In this document: positions 4,138-25,635 of the stretch, one piece after another
Layout: each line of letters begins with the position of its first letter
Numbering within the stretch: the stretch's first letter is position 1
Virus record (IMG/VR): IMGVR_UViG_2529292921_000020
Length of the DNA: 43,121 bases
Origin: a virus
Taxonomy: Duplodnaviria > Heunggongvirae > Uroviricota > Caudoviricetes
Strand: one strand, 5' to 3'
Notes under the pieces: model-generated
Databases searched by the model: none
What the model was told of the DNA's origin: nothing
The model's input: only the letters and a program-made list of their open reading frames with translations
Program-made: the position numbers and the translations under genes

Positions 4138-6193
<2,056 letters not shown>

Positions 6194-9165: not shown

Positions 9166-10143
9166 GTGTTCGGGGGTTTTATGAGCAGCAAGCTTCATGG
9201 TCTTGTCTGGGAAGGGTGCGCCTTCACCGGCATGATCTTATCCAGGGTGGCGGTTATGGCCCGTCTTGCAGACTACAGCAATGACGAGGGCGTGTCATGG
9301 CCTGCCATTGAAACTATCCGGCGTCAGATCGGTGCAAGAAGTGAATCCACAGTGAAATCGGCTATTGCAGAACTGGCGAAAGAGGGCTGGCTGACGAAGG
9401 AAGAGCGTAAGGTCGGTGGGCGTAATGTAAGCAATATCTATCGGCTTAATGTGGAAAAACTCGAAGCAGCTGCGGCGGCGGCGCGTGAGTCATATAAACC
9501 GAAAAGAAAAATTAGCCCGGCAAAAAATGACCCGTTAACAGTTGACCCGTCAAATATTGACCCCTCAACGGTTGACCCGTCAAATTTTGATGGATCAACT
9601 GTTGATAAAAAACTGCCGATTAGGGGGGCGATGATTGACCCCGATCCGTCAGTATTAAAACCTGATCCGTCAGATAAAAGATCTTCTTGTCCGGACGCTT
9701 CGCAACCGGACCCGCAGACGGCTGAACAGGATTTTTTAACCCGACACCCTGACGCGGTTGTGTTCAGTGCGAAAAAACGCCAGTGGGGAAGTCAGGAAGA
9801 TTTGGTGTGCGCACAGTGGATCTGGGGACGAATCGTGAGTCTTTACGAGCAGGCGGCCAGCTATGATGGCGAGATCGCTAGACCGAAAGAACCCAACTGG
9901 ACAGCATGGGCCAATGACGTTCGCACAATGCGGATGCTGGATGGCAGAACTCACAGACAAATTTGTGAAATGTTTGGGCGTCTCCAGCGGGATTCGTTCT
10001 GGGTAAAAAACATCATGAGTCCGGCAAAACTCCGGGAAAAATGGGATGAACTGGTTATCCGCCTGGGGCGTTCGCCTGCGCAGCGTTGCGTGAATCACAT
10101 TTCTGAACCGGACACTGAAATTCCGCCGGGCTTCAGGGGGTAA
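9166..10143 (+). CDS. Phage replication initiation protein (winged-helix N-terminal domain) with internal origin iterons
   Basis: 325-aa ORF; N-terminal HTH-type segment (SWPAIETIRRQIGARSESTVKSAIAELAKEGWL); iterons inside the coding region as in lambda O. Confidence 0.65.
   Translation: MFGGFMSSKLHGLVWEGCAFTGMILSRVAVMARLADYSNDEGVSWPAIETIRRQIGARSESTVKSAIAELAKEGWLTKEERKVGGRNVSNIYRLNVEKLEAAAAAARESYKPKRKISPAKNDPLTVDPSNIDPSTVDPSNFDGSTVDKKLPIRGAMIDPDPSVLKPDPSDKRSSCPDASQPDPQTAEQDFLTRHPDAVVFSAKKRQWGSQEDLVCAQWIWGRIVSLYEQAASYDGEIARPKEPNWTAWANDVRTMRMLDGRTHRQICEMFGRLQRDSFWVKNIMSPAKLREKWDELVIRLGRSPAQRCVNHISEPDTEIPPGFRG
9525..9620 (+). repeat. Putative replication origin: four TGACCC(G/C) iterons at about 15-bp spacing plus the palindrome TCAACTGTTGA
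   Basis: aatGACCCGTtaacagtTGACCCGTcaaatatTGACCCCTcaacggtTGACCCGTcaaat; encodes a repetitive peptide (LTVDPSNIDPSTVDPSNFD). Confidence 0.6.
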
Positions 10144-10183: not shown

Positions 10184-10606
10184 GTGGCAAAAGTTTTTAC
10201 ACAAGAAGAGCGGGAAAAAATTAAAGGGCAGGTTGTTGAACTCGTACGCCAGAGTGGGCGCGAGACGTTACGACAACTGGAAACTAAAACTGGGGCAACA
10301 AGATATCTGATGAGCGTTCTGGCCAGAGAGCTGGTTGCCAGTGGCGATGTATACAACTCTGGTTACGGGTTATTCCCGTCTGAACAGGCGCGTAAGGACT
10401 GGCAAAATGCCCGTAAAAAGCTCTCAAGGGCAAAGCTGAAGAAACCATCTGCGGTTGATCCGGACCTTATCTGGTCATTACCTGACGGAGAAATACGTCG
10501 CTACGACAGGCGTCAGAACATAATCTGTCGCGAGTGCCGGAAGAGCGAAGCTATGCAGCGCGTACTGGCGTTTTATCAGGGGAATTTTGAGGAGGTGGTG
10601 CGGTGA
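10184..10606 (+). CDS. Hypothetical early-region phage protein
   Basis: 140-aa ORF after the replication gene; no recognisable motif. Confidence 0.4.
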   Translation: MAKVFTQEEREKIKGQVVELVRQSGRETLRQLETKTGATRYLMSVLARELVASGDVYNSGYGLFPSEQARKDWQNARKKLSRAKLKKPSAVDPDLIWSLPDGEIRRYDRRQNIICRECRKSEAMQRVLAFYQGNFEEVVR

Positions 10607-10849
10607 GTGAATCAAAATGCCAGGTTAATGGCAACAAGATAGAACCATGTGCAGCACTGGCAAAGTCCCTTGAGCGTGATGCTGAATACACGATGCGAAA
10701 AGGTCTGCTGATATACAAAATCTGAAATGAGAGTTTAACTCGCGGTCCTGATTTTGTGATGTTGCGTTCCGGTGAATTTTCTAAATTACCAGTTCGGGTT
10801 TCATTTTGTCCGTTCTGTGGTGAAAGTCTGAAAACGTGGGAGAACAGAA

Positions 10850-11161
10850 ATGAATGAAATTAAAGAAATACCAGTAGTACGTGATGAATATGGCTGCTGG
10901 ACGCATCCTGAATATGAAAAATTCTGTGACGGTCGGGAATATATTTCAACGGAAGAGTTTAACGCCTGGATGGAGGAAAATAATCTTCAATACGTCCTCT
11001 GCTTCAGAGATGAAGGATGTGCTGACCTTGATGCGTGTGATGCTGATATTTCTGCATGGGAACCGGAACGACCAGAGGGCAATGGATGGTTTATTGGTTC
11101 AATACATGACACCGAAGATGGCCCGGTTTGTGTATGGCTGAGAAATAAGGTCGAAGCATAA
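10850..11161 (+). CDS. Strongly acidic small protein (hypothetical)
   Basis: 103-aa ORF; about 25 Asp/Glu versus about 9 Lys/Arg by hand count. Confidence 0.45.
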   Translation: MNEIKEIPVVRDEYGCWTHPEYEKFCDGREYISTEEFNAWMEENNLQYVLCFRDEGCADLDACDADISAWEPERPEGNGWFIGSIHDTEDGPVCVWLRNKVEA

Positions 11162-11281
11162 AGGCTATAAACCGACTAACAACTAAATACTGAAGATTTA
11201 AATCAGAAACGATTTTTATTAAATCCTTAACCGGAGGGATTCCTGCACCCTCAAATCATCAGGAGGCCGCCCGAAAGGGCG

Positions 11282-11788
11282 GTGGAGATAATAATGGGAA
11301 TAACTAAAGAACGATTGTTGGAAATAGCAAACCTTAGTGATTGGGCATTAAGTGATGAGAGAATTGTTTCTCCTCATGCTTATGAGTCAGTTACAAGTAT
11401 AGAAATAACAACAATGGCTAGAATGCTGCTTGGTTATTTCAAAATAGAAAATAAAAAACAGATGGATAGTAATGTTGATATATGTGAGATTTTAGACGAT
11501 TGGGGGGCTTGGGTTGTGGCTGGTAATAGTTCTATTGATTGGCAGGAAATAGCTGATAAATATAAAAATGTTGTTCCTCATGGTAAAAAATCACGTCGTC
11601 AGTGCAGCAATGATGAAGGGCGAATTATTGACATTAGTATCCTTAGGTTAGAAAGATATAAGCAACAAGAATATGAGTTAATTGTTGCTCATTTCGTGAT
11701 TGGTTTATCTCTTCGTGCTATTGCAAAGCAACAAGGATGTTCAGATGGAACAATTCGTAAAAGATTGCAAAAAGCCTTAGGTTTTTGA
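11282..11788 (+). CDS. Q-like antitermination-family protein (QuuD-type), AT-rich
   Basis: 168-aa ORF; motifs WGAW, SRRQCSNDE and C-terminal HTH CSDGTIRKRLQKA resemble my recollection of DLP12 QuuD; real start may be internal. Confidence 0.45.
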   Translation: MEIIMGITKERLLEIANLSDWALSDERIVSPHAYESVTSIEITTMARMLLGYFKIENKKQMDSNVDICEILDDWGAWVVAGNSSIDWQEIADKYKNVVPHGKKSRRQCSNDEGRIIDISILRLERYKQQEYELIVAHFVIGLSLRAIAKQQGCSDGTIRKRLQKALGF

Positions 11789-11817: not shown

Positions 11818-12450
11818 TCAGCGGTTTTTACCAGTGTAATGGTATAAGGATACTCCCATGTGTCTTACATGATATGGAAGCGCTGTTGCTGGATGCTTTG
11901 TGATACTCTTAAAGCGGAGGGGAGAGCCTTCCGCTTCAATTTCTGCGTCCGAAACGGTCGTAGAGAAAAATTCTTTCCATTCATTGAATTTTACTGCTGA
12001 TTTGTCAGACTTTATATAAATTAGAATTCCTCCATGATCGTCACGTGACGTACCCGTGCCGTAACGTTCGGTTAGCTGAATCCAGCCATTATGAATAGAT
12101 TTGGGGCCTCTCCATAATTTTGCTTCACCGATCCATTCGAATTTTCCGAATTGATGTTTAACTAATAAATCAACGTGACCGCCATGTTGAGTATCATGTT
12201 CAACATCATAAAACCTACCTTTCAGGAAATTTTTGATCGACGCTGTTAGCTCGTCCTCTCCCCACTTAGCATCTTGATAGAAGTGTTTGTCATTTTCTAA
12301 ATTCTGAATAGCGTCGTCTAAATCTTCATAGAGTTGCTTTACAAAAATATTTTTGTCTGCAGCTAATTTTCTTTGAACCATTCCCCTAAATTCAGGATCC
12401 ATTCTAATTAATGATTGAAGGTCTGCAGTACAGATGTTTACATCACTCAT
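11818..12450 (-). CDS. PD-(D/E)xK-type nuclease-like protein, third gene of a three-gene operon
   Basis: About 210 aa from MSDVNICTADL; core motif GGHVDLLVKHQFGKFEWIGEAKLW (D...ExK); start ATG overlaps the upstream stop (ATGAGTGA). Confidence 0.55.
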   Translation of the reverse strand: MSDVNICTADLQSLIRMDPEFRGMVQRKLAADKNIFVKQLYEDLDDAIQNLENDKHFYQDAKWGEDELTASIKNFLKGRFYDVEHDTQHGGHVDLLVKHQFGKFEWIGEAKLWRGPKSIHNGWIQLTERYGTGTSRDDHGGILIYIKSDKSAVKFNEWKEFFSTTVSDAEIEAEGSPLRFKSITKHPATALPYHVRHMGVSLYHYTGKNR

Positions 12451-12871
12451 GCAGACTCTCCAAAAGACTCGAAGGAGTAAAGTATGGATAAAGATACTGG
12501 CTAAAATTATCAACCAATTCGCCAGTTTCTGGATGGTAAAAACTTCCTGTGTCTAAAGCATAGGAAATAAGATCATCTTCAACTGGTATTGGTTCTTCCG
12601 TTAAATTATCAATGTATTGAAAATGCATATCCAATAGATGTGCTTTATAGCTAGATAAATAATCAGTTGCTTTTATTAGCAGGATATAGTCATCTTTCGT
12701 ATCAGTTAGATAGGTTAAACCATTGATAAGGGTTTTGTATGTAAAGTGATTGATATTTTTAGCATCTTTACTAACCAGAAAAAGAAAAAGATCACGACAC
12801 ACACTGCGAACAGGATCATTAAAATCCTGCTCTATTTGCGTGATAATGTCGTGATATATACTCTTTTTCAT
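12443..12871 (-). CDS. Hypothetical protein, middle gene of the three-gene operon
   Basis: 142-aa ORF, AT-rich; start overlaps the stop of the upstream gene (ATGA) and its stop overlaps the start of the nuclease gene. Confidence 0.5.
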   Translation of the reverse strand: MKKSIYHDIITQIEQDFNDPVRSVCRDLFLFLVSKDAKNINHFTYKTLINGLTYLTDTKDDYILLIKATDYLSSYKAHLLDMHFQYIDNLTEEPIPVEDDLISYALDTGSFYHPETGELVDNFSQYLYPYFTPSSLLESLHE

Positions 12872-13964
12872 TTATGGCCTGATGATCTCGCTCTTCTTTT
12901 CTCTTCACAGGACTTAACAGAATCCAATATTTTTTCAACAATAAATATAATCGAATCAATGTTGTTACAGTTCTTCGCAATTGCTTCATGCAACCTAATT
13001 CTAGGATTATCAAGCATTGTCCTTTTTCCTGGTAATATTAACTCTACTGATAAAATATGTGAAGAACTTTGTGGTAAATCCCAAATTTTTCCCAACTTAA
13101 ACTTTGTCAATATTGGGCTTGCGGACTCTCCACTATGATGGTAAACATCTTGACGCAAACACTTTTGACTTGGTTTGAGTTTTAAAGAACTTGTATTGCC
13201 ATCTGAGGTGATAAAAGATACATGAGAAATTCTGCCATCTACTTTTTCGTAAAGATCTTGTATTGAACCAAATAATTCAAGAGGATTGTTTAAAATAACG
13301 CCAGCTTCTTTTTTATAAATTTAGCCACAAGGTATTGTTGAGGCTGTGATTCACTTCTTGGAAGGATAGATAAATCAATCGTAAGAATTAATATTTTTTC
13401 TGCAGGCATTAGCATGATGGTATTAAAGCATTGCGTGACTTGGCGTGTTTTGCATTTTATTTCTCCACCATTAGCACGTAATTCCATACCCGCATCGCTA
13501 AGATGTGTTGGGTCAAGCTCTATCACTTCAGTGTAATACGCTTTGGATAAAAAAACAGCAGTGTCAATTTGTTTATCACGAATGATATCTTGACGTAGTT
13601 CAGCAAAATGCAGCTCAGTATCAGCAACTAACAGCTCCTCTCTGGATAAAGGAATTGGGTATTTTTCTGAGAAGGGGCTATTGTCCTTTTTCTGATTTGT
13701 GAAAATTGTTTGTAATTTTGCTACGTCTTCATCGGTGATTCTATAAATAGAAAGTAATCGATTCCCGCTAAAAATTAAACCTTTCCAGAAATCGTCGATT
13801 CTGTCTTTTAGGTCGGGATTATGCTGAACTACACTATTTACACGTTCAATAAAAAGGGGTAATCCTTGGGCCGTTACACCCAGTGATGAACCAAGAAGCT
13901 TACGGGTGTTGCGCCAGCCAAAGCGTGAATTGATGTTTTTTACTGTTTGCTCAAGCATTAACAC
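12868..13964 (-). pseudogene. First gene of the three-gene operon, split into two frames (13290-13964 and 12868-13320); about 360 aa if fused
   Basis: 224-aa ORF ends at a TAA at 13290-13292 while the downstream frame is open from 13320 to 12868 without a start codon; the frames overlap around a T6 run at 13309-13314. Confidence 0.45.
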
Positions 13965-15967: not shown

Positions 15968-16327
15968 ATGCTCATAGATTTGGTTTTACCTTACCCGCCG
16001 ACGGTGAACACTTACTGGCGACGCCGTGGCAGCACATATTTTGTATCAAAAGTCGGTGAGCGTTATCGCCGTGATGTGGCGCTTATTGTTCGCCAGCAGC
16101 AACTGAAATTAAACCTGTCCGGAAGGCCGGCAATAGAAATTATTGCAGAGCCACCGGATAAGCGCCGTCGTGACCTGGACAATATCCTGAAGGCACCACT
16201 GGATGTACTGACGCATGCGGGGCTGCTCATAGACGACGAGCAGTTTGATGAAATTAATATTGTGCGCGGTCAGCTTGTTCCTGGTGGGCGGTTGGGGATA
16301 AAAATCACAGAACTGGAGTATGCATGA
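15968..16327 (+). CDS. rusA: Holliday junction resolvase RusA
   Basis: 119-aa ORF; conserved RusA motifs (RRRDLDNILKA, LIDDEQ, GGRLGIKITE). Confidence 0.85.
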   Translation: MLIDLVLPYPPTVNTYWRRRGSTYFVSKVGERYRRDVALIVRQQQLKLNLSGRPAIEIIAEPPDKRRRDLDNILKAPLDVLTHAGLLIDDEQFDEINIVRGQLVPGGRLGIKITELEYA

Positions 16328-17013
16328 ATAACCAGTATTTACAGTTTGTTCGTGAGCAACTCATGATTGCCACCGCCGATTTGAGTGGATCAACAAAAGG
16401 GCAGCTTGAGGCCTGGCAGGAGAATGCCATGTTTGATACAGGGCGTTACAGGCGTAAAAAAATCCGGTACCGCGATGAAGTGACTGGAAAAATGATAACG
16501 CGGGATAATCCACCAATCCCGGGAAAGCAATCGCTGGCGAAGGGGGCGTCAATTCCTCTCGTCAGTCCGGTTGAGTTTTTGACATCATCGTGGCGGCGGG
16601 CTGTTCTGTCTCTTGAAGAACATCATAAAGCCTGGTTGTTGTGGTGTTACAGCGGGAGTATTTGTTGGGAATATCAGATCGCGATAACACAGTGGGCGTG
16701 GAATGAATTTAATACTCAATCCGGTACCAGAAAAATTGCTGGGAAAACGCAGGAACGCCTGAAAAAATTAATCTGGCTGGCGGCGCAGGCAGTAAAAGCA
16801 GAACTTTTTGGTGGGGAAGGTTATGAATATCAGGAGCTGGCATTACTGGCGGGAGTGACAACTAAAAACTGGTCCAAAACATTTACTCGTCACTGGGTTG
16901 CAATGAAACACATTTTTCACCGACTGGATAGTGAGGCTTTATTATTTGTAATGAGAACACGTTCAAAACAAAAGGCGGCATTTTCAAAGCAAAGTGTTGC
17001 AAAAGTAGATTGA
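16324..17013 (+). CDS. Late-gene antitermination protein Q-like
   Basis: 229-aa ORF directly after rusA and before the promoter, terminator and tRNA-lysis region, the canonical Q position; family assigned by synteny. Confidence 0.6.
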   Translation: MNNQYLQFVREQLMIATADLSGSTKGQLEAWQENAMFDTGRYRRKKIRYRDEVTGKMITRDNPPIPGKQSLAKGASIPLVSPVEFLTSSWRRAVLSLEEHHKAWLLWCYSGSICWEYQIAITQWAWNEFNTQSGTRKIAGKTQERLKKLIWLAAQAVKAELFGGEGYEYQELALLAGVTTKNWSKTFTRHWVAMKHIFHRLDSEALLFVMRTRSKQKAAFSKQSVAKVD

Positions 17014-17448: not shown

Positions 17449-17576
17449 CTACACTTATTTTCCCGGCTCGCTTTTGCGGGCCTTTTTTTTAAATGTCTCA
17501 CAATTCAGACGGTTGACAGTTGTCTGTTTTGCGGGGAGTTTGTTAAGTAAGCGACTCGTCAGAACCGTATTGATAT

Positions 17577-19148
17577 TTACTGAGAGCTCAGATCAACTTT
17601 CCAGGGCAACAGATCGCGTACCCGGTTTGCCGGCCAGTCCTGGATATGTTCAATGACGTAACGCAGCCACTTTTCTGGCTCCACATTGTTCAGACGGCAT
17701 GTGCCGATCAGCGAGTACAACACCGCCGCATGTTCACCACCGCTGTCGGAACCCGCGAACATCCAGTTTTTCCGGCCTACGGCCACTCCCCGTAAGGCGT
17801 TCTCTGCGATGTTGTTGTCGATTTCCACCCAGCCATTACTGCAGTACACGTTCAGTGCATCCCACTGTTTCAGCAGGTATGCGAACGCTTTTGCCGTATC
17901 TGAGTGACGCGACAGTGTTTTCATCTGTTGCTGTATCCAGTCATACAGTGACTGCATCAGTGGCGCGGCTCTGGCTTTTCTTGCCGCCAGACGCTGTTCT
18001 GCTGAACAGCACCGGACCTCTGCCTCGATGGCATACAGTTCACCGATACGCTGCAGGGCTTCCGTGGTGATGTAGGTGGGCGCTCTTGCATGCACATCGT
18101 GGATTTTTCTCCGGGCATGAGCCATACACGCGGCTTCCGTTATTCTGCCGGATTCGTATAACGCCCGGTAACCACCGTAAGCATCGGCCTGAAGCACACC
18201 GCTGTAACCGGCCAGGTGATTTTGTGGATGGATACCTTTCCGGTCCGGACTGTACGCGAACCAGACCGCCGGGGGCATCTGTGAACCGGCGTTACGGTCA
18301 TCACGGACGTAGACCCACAGCCGGGCTGTCCGGGTTTTACCGCTGCCCGGCTCCTGGACCGGGACGGGGATATCATCAGCATGGACTTTACCGGGCATCA
18401 GCACATACTGGCGCAGGACGTCATACAGCGGCTCCAGCAGTTCAGCAACAGCACCTGTCCAGCGCCCCAGTGTGGCACGGCTCAGCTCCACGCCCTGACG
18501 ACGGTATATTTCTGACTGGCGGTATAACGGCAGATGGTCTGCATATTTCCCGGTGACAACATGGGCCAGAAGCCCCGCTCCGGCATAACTGCGTGCAATG
18601 GGTTTTGAAGGTACTGGTGCCTGCACGATATGGTCGCACCGGCAACAGGCCTGTTTCGGACGTTGTGTTTCGATAACCTTAAAGGCGCTGCTGATAAGCT
18701 CCAGTTGCTCTGACACATCACATCCCAGAGAACTGAGTTCACCACCACAGGCAGGACAGCATTCCTCTTCCGGCCGGATAACCCGGGTTTCACGGGGAAG
18801 TGAGGCCGGTAACGGTTTACGGGCTGAAGACTGGCGCAGGGCGGATGGCAGTACCGGGTCATATTGCTCACCCAGCGTTTCCGCCATTTCTTCCTGAAGT
18901 GCGCTGATTCGCTCCTGTGCTTCCTGTATCTGCCGTTCGGTTTTTGCACGAAGTTTTTCTGAGCTTTTACCGAACTGCATACGTTGCAGTTTCGCAACCA
19001 GCGCCTTCAGCCGGTTGATTTCGGAAGCATAAGCCGCCACCCGCTGTGAGAGCAGGCGGTTGTATTCAGCCATCTGGCGGATGGTGTCCTGTTGCGTCTG
19101 CAACAGTGCCCGCAGGCGGGCGTTCTCATGAGCAAGTGAGGTGTCCAT
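17577..19148 (-). CDS. IS66-family transposase (TnpC)
   Basis: 523-aa ORF with N-terminal coiled coil, Cys-rich zinc-binding region and DDE core typical of IS66 transposases. Confidence 0.85.
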
Positions 19149-19167
19149 ATCCTCACTTTACAACGGG

Positions 19168-19515
19168 TTATATGCGGATTCCAGCGCGTTCCGTTCGTTT
19201 CGGGTGCTTCCAGTTGATACCTTCAAGAAGCATGGATAACTGAGCCGGAGTAAGGTGCACCTTGCCGTCACGGGTGACTGGCCAGACGAAGCGGCCCCGC
19301 TCCAGGCGTTTGGTGAAGAGGCACAGTCCGTCACTGTCAGCCCACAACACTTTTATCTGGTCACCCCGGCGTCCGCGGAAGATGAACAGGTGTCCGGAGA
19401 ACGGGTCATCCTTCAGGACGTTCTGAACTTTTGATGCCAGGCCGTTAAAGCCATTTCGCATATCGGTGATACCTGCAACCAGCCAGATACGCGAACCTGC
19501 AGGGAGAGATATCAT
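19168..19515 (-). CDS. IS66 accessory protein TnpB (Orf2)
   Basis: 115-aa ORF MISLPAGSRIWLVAGITDMRNGFNGL..., characteristic IS66 Orf2. Confidence 0.8.
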   Translation of the reverse strand: MISLPAGSRIWLVAGITDMRNGFNGLASKVQNVLKDDPFSGHLFIFRGRRGDQIKVLWADSDGLCLFTKRLERGRFVWPVTRDGKVHLTPAQLSMLLEGINWKHPKRTERAGIRI

Positions 19516-20192
19516 CAGTGGCTGCTCCCTTTTATTTCGCGGATAAGTGTCTGTAATAACGCCGGCGTCAGTTTACCTTTAAGCCTGAGAGTTCCGGCCG
19601 GCAGAACCAGCTCACAACACAGACTGTCGGACGGTGTATTTATCTGCTCTGGTTCCTGTGCGGGGGCCGGGATTTTATTATCCGGCTCCGGCGTTAACGT
19701 CACGGGAAGCAGTGCCGGCATATTTTTTCCGGAAGGCAGCAGGCCACCTTTCCGGTATTGATGGCGCCAGTTGAAGAGCAGGTTATCGTTGATTCCGTTT
19801 TCCCGGGCGATCTGCGCCACACAGGCTCCGGGCTGCAGTGACTGCTCCACTAAGGCGATTTTAAACTCATAAGGGAAGTTGGGCCGCCGGGGACGTTTTT
19901 TTACCACGGGGGCTTCGGATATAACGGTGCTTTCAGGACGTACGACTGGTACCGTGGAAAATTGTCCGTAAAGGCAGGCATCAAGTTCCTGCTCCGACAT
20001 GCCTGCGGGCAAAGGCCACGAAAGGCCAGCTCTCCGAAAGCGCACGAACATACTACAAACTGTTGATTTTGGTACACCCAGGCGACGCCCGGCCACAACC
20101 CGGGGTAAATGTTCTTCAAAGTGAAGACGTAAAGCTTCAGTGATCCAGGTCCGGTGTTTCATACGATAGTGTCCATTAAAAATGATGGACAT
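19515..20192 (-). CDS. IS66 accessory protein TnpA (Orf1)
   Basis: 225-aa ORF with N-terminal HTH, first gene of the IS66 operon, coupled to TnpB. Confidence 0.7.
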   Translation of the reverse strand: MSIIFNGHYRMKHRTWITEALRLHFEEHLPRVVAGRRLGVPKSTVCSMFVRFRRAGLSWPLPAGMSEQELDACLYGQFSTVPVVRPESTVISEAPVVKKRPRRPNFPYEFKIALVEQSLQPGACVAQIARENGINDNLLFNWRHQYRKGGLLPSGKNMPALLPVTLTPEPDNKIPAPAQEPEQINTPSDSLCCELVLPAGTLRLKGKLTPALLQTLIREIKGSSH

Positions 20193-20646
20193 TATTTTTG
20201 TAGAGCCGGAGGAAACAGACCAGACGGTTTAAATGAGCCGGTTACTTTGTTAAAAGAAACTGGCATGGTGAATCCCCCTGTGCGGAGGGGCAATCAGCGA
20301 GTAGGTATATGGGATAATCGCGGATTCAGGTGCTGGTACTGAATTCACCGGGAGGCACCCGGCACCATGCAATGGCACATAGCGCCACTCTCCAGCCCCT
20401 CTCCGGAGGGGCTTTCTTATGGACAAAAAAAGCCCGCGCAGGGAGACGCGGGCGGCAAGGAATAAACAACAAAACGTGAAGTAATATTTCAGCTGGCGAA
20501 TAATATCCGACAGTAATCACTCTGCGCAATAGCGCGGCCTTTTTCGTATTGCGGACTGTTGTCTCTCTTCTGCCATTGTCCTGTAACTTCCGGACTTCAG
20601 CCCGCTCCTCATTTTACTCACAATATTATCCCGGCCGGGAGGATTC

Positions 20647-24460: not shown

Positions 24461-24955
24461 ATGAACCGTGTTCTGTGTGTGGTGATTATTGTCATGCTGG
24501 TAGCCTGTGGTGTGCTTAGTCTGGGGCTGAATCATTACCGCGATAACGCCATCACCTACAAAGCGCAGCGCGATAAAAAAGTCAGTGAGCTGAAACTGGC
24601 GAATGCCACTATTACTGACATGCAGCAGCGCCAGCGAGATGTCGCTGCGCTTGATGCCAGATACACGAAGGAATTAGCCGATGCGAGAGCTGAAAATGAA
24701 ACTCTGCGCGCTGATGTTGCCGCTGGTCGTAAGCGCCTGCGGGTCAACGCCACCTGCCCCGGTACCGTGCGTGAAGCCACCGGCACCTCCAGCGTGGATA
24801 ATGCAACCGGCCCCCGACTGGCAGACACCGCTGAACGGGATTATTTCATCCTCAGAGAACGGTTGATGACAATGCAGAAGCAGCTGGAAGGGGCGCAGGA
24901 ATATATCCGCACTCAGTGCACTAAGCTGGCTTTTTATTATCCGGAGGATACATGA
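24461..24955 (+). CDS. Rz: Spanin inner-membrane subunit Rz
   Basis: About 165 aa from [19 protein letters not shown]-terminal TM then coiled-coil periplasmic domain; Rz1 is embedded in the +1 frame. Confidence 0.8.
24696..24866 (+). CDS. Rz1: Spanin outer-membrane lipoprotein subunit Rz1 (embedded in Rz)
   Basis: [15 protein letters not shown] lipobox followed by a Pro-rich mature peptide, entirely within the Rz coding region. Confidence 0.75.
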
Positions 24956-25176
24956 AGAAATTACGGGTAACCGTAGAACCTTGTCAGGGAACAATTCCGT
25001 TCCGTATTTTGCAGCGTGGTCGTGTTCTTGTTGAAGGTTCGTTCAGTGGTAAATGTACGCAATTACACTCCCGGACCTTTCAGGTGAATGCCACGAATGA
25101 AGAGCTAACCGTGGAGTGTACGATGAATGCCGCTAAATGCCGCATGGTATCCGCTGCATTACAGCCAGTGTGTTGA
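24952..25176 (+). CDS. Hypothetical small protein after Rz
   Basis: 74-aa ORF overlapping the Rz stop. Confidence 0.35.
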
Positions 25177-25374
25177 GCGACCTTATTATCCATGCGCGGT
25201 ATTGTCGCCGTATTCCTGCATTAACAGAGACCGCAGCCCGACAGGGAGACTCCTCTGCGCGAGTGTGCGGGGATAATCAAAAACGATACACACCGGGGTT
25301 TACCGCGTTAACGGAGCGCGGCGTTGTCCCCTCATAGTCGCCTGTCCGGTGCGATGGTGGAAGAAACCGAACGT

Positions 25375-25635
25375 TCATTTCTCGTTATTTGTCATGCTGG
25401 CCGGGCGCAGATGCGTTGCATCTGTTGCCAGCCTTCTCCTGCAGGCTTCAATAACCCACGCTGAAAAGTTACCGGACCCTTTATGCTCAAGGGCGATGTT
25501 GATCTGTTCAATTATGTGATTGGGGAAACGGATATTGCGGGTTGTGGTTCTGCGGGTCCGGTTTTTCGATGACATATTTATTTCCTTTACTGATTGCCAT
25601 ATGACGGGGATTTTACATGGCTGAGCTTCGTACAC
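25375..25635 (-). CDS. Ribbon-helix-helix (Arc/CopG-like) DNA-binding protein
   Basis: Probable start MSSKNRT (near 25575); NIRFPNHIIEQINIALEHKGSGNFSAWVIEACRRRL fits the beta-strand/helix/helix pattern. Confidence 0.5.
   Translation of the reverse strand: MYEAQPCKIPVIWQSVKEINMSSKNRTRRTTTRNIRFPNHIIEQINIALEHKGSGNFSAWVIEACRRRLATDATHLRPASMTNNEK

Follow-up and report, generated by a model that had tools for sequence, protein, structure and literature searches.

Ocr (gp0.3 of phage T7) and ArdA are small, strongly acidic, stand-alone proteins that are expressed early and are encoded by phages or conjugative plasmids. Several other mobile-element proteins, namely T4 Arn, T7 gp5.9, lambda Gam, AcrIIA4 and AcrIF2, belong to a size and charge class similar to that of the protein described here. 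Well-studied DNA mimics display their charge on rigid scaffolds, and acidity is also common among small phage proteins that are not mimics.

An earlier note on the DNA studied here had pointed to a 103-aa acidic protein as a possible DNA mimic or anti-defence factor. We analyzed the gene, its family, its occurrence on mobile elements and its predicted structure, and compared them with the known systems.

The acidic gene and its setting in a Rac-like prophage

The window, i.e. the whole stretch of 43,121 nucleotides that was analyzed, carries a Rac-like prophage nearly identical to one adjoining ompW in E. coli O127:H6 E2348/69. The 1.2 kb surrounding the acidic gene is 100% identical to the E2348/69 prophage, and the rest of the window matches it at about 99.85% identity, with insertion sequences making up the differences. 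The features around the gene are the following:

9166-10143, 5' of the acidic gene: O-like replication initiator
10184-10606: DUF977/Ren-like gene, between the O-like gene and the pseudogene
10603-10857, plus strand: upstream pseudogene, directly 5' of the acidic gene
10838-10842, plus strand: GGGAG Shine-Dalgarno-like element, 7 nt 5' of the ATG of the acidic gene, read from the sequence
10850-11161, plus strand: gene for the 103-aa acidic protein, counted through its stop codon; the product matches WP_001002673.1 exactly and belongs to PHROG 1372
11282/11294-11788, 3' of the acidic gene: antiterminator Q

The open reading frame of 103 codons starts with ATG and ends with TAA, and its RefSeq entry, WP_001002673.1, is annotated as a hypothetical protein. 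The ATG overlaps the 3' end of the upstream pseudogene, whose stop codon is located at 10855-10857, an arrangement that would be typical of translational coupling. The identical protein heads a 90%-identity cluster with 406 member sequences, and its homologues (E <= 1e-3) form 154 clusters when grouped at 90% identity and 568 when grouped at 50%. Against homologues of 75-94% identity, dN/dS was 0.11-0.17, indicating purifying selection. Given the RefSeq annotation, the hundreds of homologues and these dN/dS values, the reading frame did not arise by chance; it is a real gene under selection.

The earlier note had placed the gene in the early region, just after the replication genes. The annotation bears this out, with the O-like initiator and the DUF977/Ren-like gene on the 5' side and the Q antiterminator on the 3' side; in gene order, YdaS/YdaT-like regulators precede the O-like initiator. 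Judging from this position, the gene would belong to a rightward early operon extending from the replication genes to Q, and would be expressed early after induction or infection.

Composition was computed from the translation. The protein contains 25 Asp and Glu (24% of its residues), 8 Lys and Arg, 2 His, 6 Cys and 5 Trp, so that the earlier hand count of about 25 acidic against about 9 basic residues was accurate to within one residue. The pI, which the earlier note had wanted computed, is 4.14, and the net charge at pH 7 is about -17. Among the 27 annotated coding sequences of the near-identical reference prophage, this protein is the most acidic, and its net charge density of -0.165 per residue is roughly double the value for the gene ranked second. 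In terms of surface charge, its 25 Asp and Glu against 8 Lys and Arg give it the high negative charge density of the DNA-mimic class.

The upstream pseudogene (10603-10857, plus strand) belongs to PHROG 4030 and is homologous to rac21 of phage Rac-SA53. It has an in-frame TGA at 10723-10725 in place of the TGG (Trp) of the intact 84-aa homologue, annotated by RefSeq as an "internal stop", and the disruption also occurs in 3 of 80 close relatives. We considered whether the upstream gene is a Lar homologue and rejected this, the match of its C-terminus (CPFCGESLKTWENRNE) being faint (E = 0.042 over 13 residues).

On the other side, a GC-rich hairpin on the plus strand at 11266-11283 (GCCGCCC-GAAA-GGGCGGT) has a stem of 6-7 bp and a GAAA loop, and no T-run follows it. 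It lies directly 5' of the Shine-Dalgarno element and the ATG (11294) of the Q gene, and may be a regulatory or antitermination-related structure.

The window has two Q genes (11282-11788 and 16324-17013), and directly 3' of the first one is a block of minus-strand reading frames (11818-13964). None of the reading frames in this block had a Pfam match, and one of 230 aa gave a faint PADLOC match to PDC-S54 (E = 0.002). A 363-aa gene of the reference prophage appears to be split in the window (13290-13964 and 12868-13158). By its placement, the block is a candidate moron or defence island.

Regarding the insertion sequences, the 1954-bp insertion at 4138-6091 relative to the E2348/69 prophage is an IS21-family element. 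An IS66-family element occupies 17547-20277, where the reference prophage has the IS4-like ISEc13, and an ISEc13-like sequence is present at 33960-35511 of the window. Given the IS21 insertion, the window would derive from a strain closely related to the reference and not from the reference assembly. The reading frames of the two elements are as follows:

4224-5246: IS21 element, 340 aa, rve integrase core and HTH
5243-6025: IS21 element, 260 aa, IstB_IS21 (E = 7.7e-112)
19515-20192, minus strand: IS66 element, HTH_Tnp_1
19168-19515, minus strand: IS66 element, TnpB_IS66
17577-19148, minus strand: IS66 element, DDE_Tnp_IS66

Conserved blocks and predicted structure of the family

Among the library families, the protein matched only PHROG 1372, whose annotated function is unknown. 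The match is full-length (E = 1.4e-55) and pairs residues 1-102 with profile positions 55-158; unlike the protein, the profile has N- and C-terminal extensions. No Pfam family matched at E <= 0.1, no NCBIfam entry at E <= 1, and none of the PADLOC-DB defence models at E <= 1, while the PDB, searched by sequence with the protein alone and also with two profiles, returned only noise. The earlier note would have given up its idea if homology or structure had assigned the protein to an unrelated family; no characterised family was matched. We also searched the literature by accession, plasmid homologue, PHROG identifier and sequence motif, as well as the supplements of a machine-learning anti-CRISPR paper, and these searches returned nothing on the family. 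In the polyvalent-protein paper (PMC5512222), DUF2829, DUF550 and DUF551 gave no match, and "Lar" matched only the word "large".

Alignments and structure models divide the protein into two conserved blocks and a variable segment between them:

10871-10915, plus strand: N-terminal conserved motif PVxRDxxGxWTHPxY, residues 8-22, from alignments
11006-11056, plus strand: variable acidic loop, residues 53-69 (RDEGCADLDACDADISA), from alignments and structure models
11057-11143, plus strand: C-terminal conserved motif WxPxxPxGxGWFxGSIHDTEDGPVCxWLR, residues 70-98, from alignments and models

Near-invariant residues across the family are R11, G15, W17, H19 and P20 in the N-terminal block, and W70, P72, P75, G77, G79, W80, F81, I85, G91, P92, W96 and R98 in the C-terminal block. 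The C-terminal motif is predicted to form a beta-hairpin with an acidic DTED tip, and positions 87, 89 and 90 are acidic in 81-92% of family members. His86 and Cys94 are less strictly kept, in no more than 73-79% of the family. The earlier note had remarked on several Cys; six are indeed present, and Cys94 is the only one of them conserved in the family. We thus rejected zinc binding or another metal cluster through the six Cys, since five of them are not conserved and such a cluster is unlikely.

Of the 25 acidic residues, 6 fall in the loop at residues 53-69, which differs in both sequence and length among homologues. Across 232 modules, the family medians are 22 Asp and Glu, 7 Lys and Arg, and a pI of 4.2. 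Despite the unconserved central segment, strong acidity therefore appears to be a trait of the family and not a peculiarity of this copy.

We ran AlphaFold2 twice, with 49 and 75 aligned sequences. Mean pLDDT was 79 and 81 and pTM 0.67 and 0.69, and the topology agreed between the runs. The predicted order is an ordered N-terminal segment with a short strand, helices at residues 20-26 and 34-43, a strand at 46-52, the acidic loop at about 53-69, and a beta-hairpin at 80-99 tipped by DTED. Confidence in the loop was low, with block means of 58-65 and pLDDT below 50 at residues 56-60; the deeper alignment left the topology unchanged and the loop still at low confidence. The models thus describe a small, compact alpha+beta domain, of which this protein would be a stand-alone copy. 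A fold search of the PDB with the predicted structure found no structural neighbour, whether among Tad1, Tad2 and Acb2 or among enzymes of any kind.

Mobile-element distribution, neighbours and fusion partners

By tblastn, the family was found in 83 phage records. The hosts of these phages are Escherichia, Erwinia, Klebsiella, Yersinia (PY54), Pectobacterium and Dickeya, and further Vibrio, Pseudomonas, Acinetobacter, Burkholderia (phi1026b gp46) and Variovorax. Plasmid records with the family number 2028. Typing assigned 1756 of them to the conjugative class, mostly Klebsiella IncF plasmids, and Klebsiella is the source of 1496 of the 2028.

In the prophage studied here, the gene lies in a nin-like region. 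In Erwinia prophages it is found two genes after the N antiterminator and before Erf/YqaJ recombination genes, and in Klebsiella, Pseudomonas, Vibrio and Variovorax phages in the ea region adjoining int. These phage positions are classical accessory slots. We also considered whether the gene opens the early region of T7-like phages, as ocr does, and rejected this, the Pectobacterium and Dickeya phages concerned being organised otherwise.

On a Klebsiella IncFII plasmid, the family member comes last after traD-traI-traX-finO-PIN-hypothetical-DUF2726, and its gene overlaps the DUF2726 stop codon by 4 bp. On the Klebsiella plasmid NZ_CP026588.1 (67293-69600; L086 9984-12291), the block after finO consists of PIN, hypothetical, DUF2726 and acidic protein genes; this PIN/DUF2726/acidic block could include, in that lineage only, a nuclease paired with its inhibitor or a pair resembling a toxin-antitoxin system. 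In F-type plasmids of Enterobacter and Citrobacter, the family member is among the small reading frames in the traW to traU interval, and in a Serratia plasmid it is located between traF and trbB. The homologues on these plasmids have the full set of family motifs. The leading region of NZ_CP026588.1 clusters ArdA, PsiB, SSB and anti-CRISPR genes; the family gene is instead in or after the tra operon. Integrative conjugative elements of P. aeruginosa show the backbone order ParA, two hypothetical genes, a fusion of the module to Lar, DUF2786, HNH and DnaB, with a TraI_2 relaxase and an integrase nearby. The domain is thus an accessory module of proteobacterial mobile elements. All their major kinds carry it in variable accessory regions, from phages, both temperate and virulent, to F-type conjugative plasmids and integrative conjugative elements.

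These positions bear on a different reading, in which the protein would be a host-takeover or regulatory factor whose acidic domain binds a host protein that handles nucleic acids, e.g. a nucleoid protein, RecBCD, SSB or RNA polymerase. We consider this reading rather doubtful, and rate just as low the purpose that would go with it, namely to give the incoming element an advantage in replication, recombination or expression. Conserved acidity and mobile-element distribution fit it equally well. In lambda and P22, the interval from N to the recombination genes houses gam/abc-type functions, and by analogy the placement of the gene in that interval in some prophages may speak for it, as do the plasmid copies in or after the tra operon and not in the anti-defence cluster of the leading region. 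The identifiable fusion partners, however, are the counter-defence domains Lar and Tad2-like, which argues against takeover.

A further candidate is the AcrIE9/AcrIE10 anti-CRISPR module, which many conjugative plasmids of Klebsiella and E. coli carry (PMC12248084). The host range and plasmid types of our family are the same as those reported for that module, and our family is likewise very common on Klebsiella IncF plasmids. WP_013023810.1 is the gene named AcrIE9/10a in that paper, and the two genes directly upstream of it would be, by position only, AcrIE9.2 and AcrIE10. That the family is a divergent member of this module is nevertheless extremely improbable: on NZ_CP026588.1 the Acr locus lies at 24472-25423 and the family homologue at 69292-69600. 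With separate loci, and with hmmsearch and blastp E values of at least 0.28 in searches against only 5 sequences, identity with AcrIE9/AcrIE10 was rejected.

We then considered the neighbours. Among 80 close relatives (92-100% identical), a rac21-like gene is upstream in 60 and absent in 20, and Q is downstream in only 14. The 110 neighbouring reading frames at 17 diverse loci fall into 152 PHROGs, none occurring more than 2 times. A fixed partner gene was accordingly rejected, the upstream gene being variable (phrog_4030 in Rac-like phages, phrog_4132 in D6) and a pseudogene here. In a set of 150 representatives, 72 are stand-alone, 75 are extended at one end or at both, and 3 carry the module in tandem; nearly all Enterobacterales copies stand alone. 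The lack of a recurrent neighbour, together with the stand-alone form of about half of the 150 representatives, fits an autonomous effector.

Several fusion partners could be identified. A Lar_restr_allev domain is fused N-terminally in two representatives (P0134 and P0206) and C-terminally in two others (P0238 and P0283), and all four pass the Pfam gathering score. The module-Lar protein forms an 85-member cluster and occurs on more than 1200 P. aeruginosa contigs (841 and 362 for two members), including PA7; its NCBI name is "Lar family restriction alleviation protein". A Tad2-like domain is fused to the module in one family member (1.5e-22), and other partners are an Rv2179c-like 3'-5' exoribonuclease and a DHH/DHHA1 phosphoesterase. 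Since module-Lar is present on more than 1200 contigs and genomes of Stutzerimonas and further Pseudomonadaceae repeatedly contain the exonuclease fusion, assembly artefacts do not account for the fusions.

At least 10 of the 150 representatives share the most frequent partner, another uncharacterised domain, about 95 aa long, with the pattern ERQRQ...EGWTxEHDD...WPW...WKP...KAGALILAEIERLDR, or in shorter form ERQRQ...EGWTxEHDD...AEIERLDR. Its carriers include P0147, P0155, P0183, P0197, P0198, P0217, P0253, P0257, P0258 and P0260. It had no Pfam or PDB sequence match and matched only PHROGs of unknown function. A resemblance of this ERQRQ...EIERLDR domain to WP_013023809, the inferred AcrIE10, was not significant and was rejected.

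The variety of partners would be expected of a non-catalytic adaptor or oligomerisation module that lacks an effector activity and only targets or assembles the fused domains, its stand-alone copies acting through neighbouring gene products. Extra regions on either side in 78 of the 150 representatives, with very diverse partners and 3 tandem cases, agree with such a module. We think it quite unlikely all the same, as 72 of the 150 representatives and nearly all Enterobacterales copies stand alone, no neighbour is conserved, and in this prophage the upstream gene is pseudogenised while the acidic gene is intact and under selection.

The nature of the partners, and of the conserved residues, also suggests a small-molecule "sponge" or a minimal enzyme acting on nucleotides or immune signalling molecules, with a pocket made up of R11, W17, H19, W70, W80, F81, W96 and R98. 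Most conserved residues are aromatic, joined by two Arg and one invariant His; the Tad2-like sponge, the DHH phosphoesterase and the 3'-5' exoribonuclease all act on nucleotides, and an Acb2/Tad1 hairpin domain is present in one neighbouring gene. Such a function is nonetheless unlikely. Anionic nucleotides would bind poorly to a protein with a net charge of about -15, the Trp, Pro and Gly that are conserved resemble a structural core, the fold search linked the predicted structure neither to Tad1, Tad2 or Acb2 nor to an enzyme, and His86 and Cys94 are conserved in only part of the family.

A possible counter-defence role and comparison with known systems

Taking these observations into account, we tentatively propose that the protein is a counter-defence inhibitor, perhaps one that alleviates restriction through DNA-mimic-like competition; we infer its timing, its role, its restriction-enzyme target and the mimicry alike, and hold the proposal as possible, somewhat short of probable. 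The protein would act as a stoichiometric inhibitor of a host DNA-targeting defence, and alleviation of restriction by restriction-modification enzymes would be the most likely form. Its acidic surface and the acidic tip of the hairpin might occupy the nucleic-acid-binding surface of the enzyme and so compete in the manner of a DNA mimic. As an autonomous effector, it could help the mobile element to establish itself.

Fusion to Lar in both orders, the conserved charge, the spread on mobile elements, autonomy and purifying selection count for this proposal. Owing to the link to Lar, restriction alleviation is the leading candidate, and the fusions to Lar and to other counter-defence domains lend circumstantial support to a counter-defence role. 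The fusion may also reflect shared genomic neighbourhoods and not a shared target, since Lar-like zinc ribbons and the other partners are promiscuous. The position of the gene on F-type plasmids, in or after the tra operon and outside the leading region where early-acting anti-defence genes cluster, speaks against the proposal, and the 6 of 25 acidic residues that lie in the flexible variable loop speak against mimicry. The anti-defence idea of the earlier note thus finds circumstantial backing in the conserved acidity, the mobile-element spread and the fusions to Lar, Tad2-like, Rv2179c-like exonuclease and DHH phosphoesterase domains. DNA mimicry, its specific form, would be a putative mechanism; in sequence and fold the protein resembles no known mimic. 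It is a reasonable candidate, as an acidic mobile-element accessory protein with an unrelated fold.

A broader reading, about which we are more reserved, is that of a previously unrecognised, broad-host-range counter-defence family whose fold lacks a solved relative and whose members act as acidic restriction-alleviation or nuclease-blocking factors. Its users, a point on which we are equally reserved, would be lambdoid and other phages, the dominant Klebsiella IncF resistance plasmids and, joined to Lar, the integrative conjugative elements of P. aeruginosa. On this reading, few undescribed anti-defence families would be as widespread.

If the proposal is true, a new and structurally unrelated family would join the small set of acidic anti-restriction proteins. 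More than 2000 sequenced plasmids carry the family, among them the Klebsiella IncF plasmids by which carbapenemase and ESBL genes spread, and many temperate phages and the P. aeruginosa integrative conjugative elements carry it too, so that such an activity could affect the passage of resistance plasmids and prophages across strain barriers. The repeated fusion to Lar suggests a concrete first hypothesis, namely type I restriction-modification systems. If the family lacks such an activity, it remains no more than a large uncharacterised family, one of the larger ones among the accessory genes of proteobacterial mobile elements.

Among the known systems, Lar of the Rac prophage and Ral of lambda occupy the same kind of slot among the lambdoid early accessory genes as the acidic gene does. 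Lar is a zinc ribbon with paired CxxC, whereas the acidic protein has no paired CxxC and no match to PF14354 or TIGR03655. It is not a Lar homologue, and Lar domains appear only as fusion partners in other proteins of the family. The sponges Tad2 (DUF2829) and Acb2/Tad1 are, like this protein, small phage accessory proteins, but it matches neither their profiles nor their folds. In PDB sequence and fold searches, no homology or fold similarity to Arn, gp5.9, Gam, AcrIIA4 or AcrIF2 was detected. The protein likewise has no sequence match to the Ocr (PF08684) or ArdA (PF07275) profiles in Pfam, NCBIfam and PDB sequence searches, and its predicted structure shows no fold similarity to a solved mimic. 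With a pI of 4.1, an Asp and Glu content close to one quarter of its residues, a stand-alone gene, a family spread over phages and conjugative plasmids and, as its position suggests, early expression, it nevertheless resembles Ocr and ArdA in kind. By analogy, its closest functional likeness would be to the Ocr/ArdA type of acidic anti-restriction proteins.
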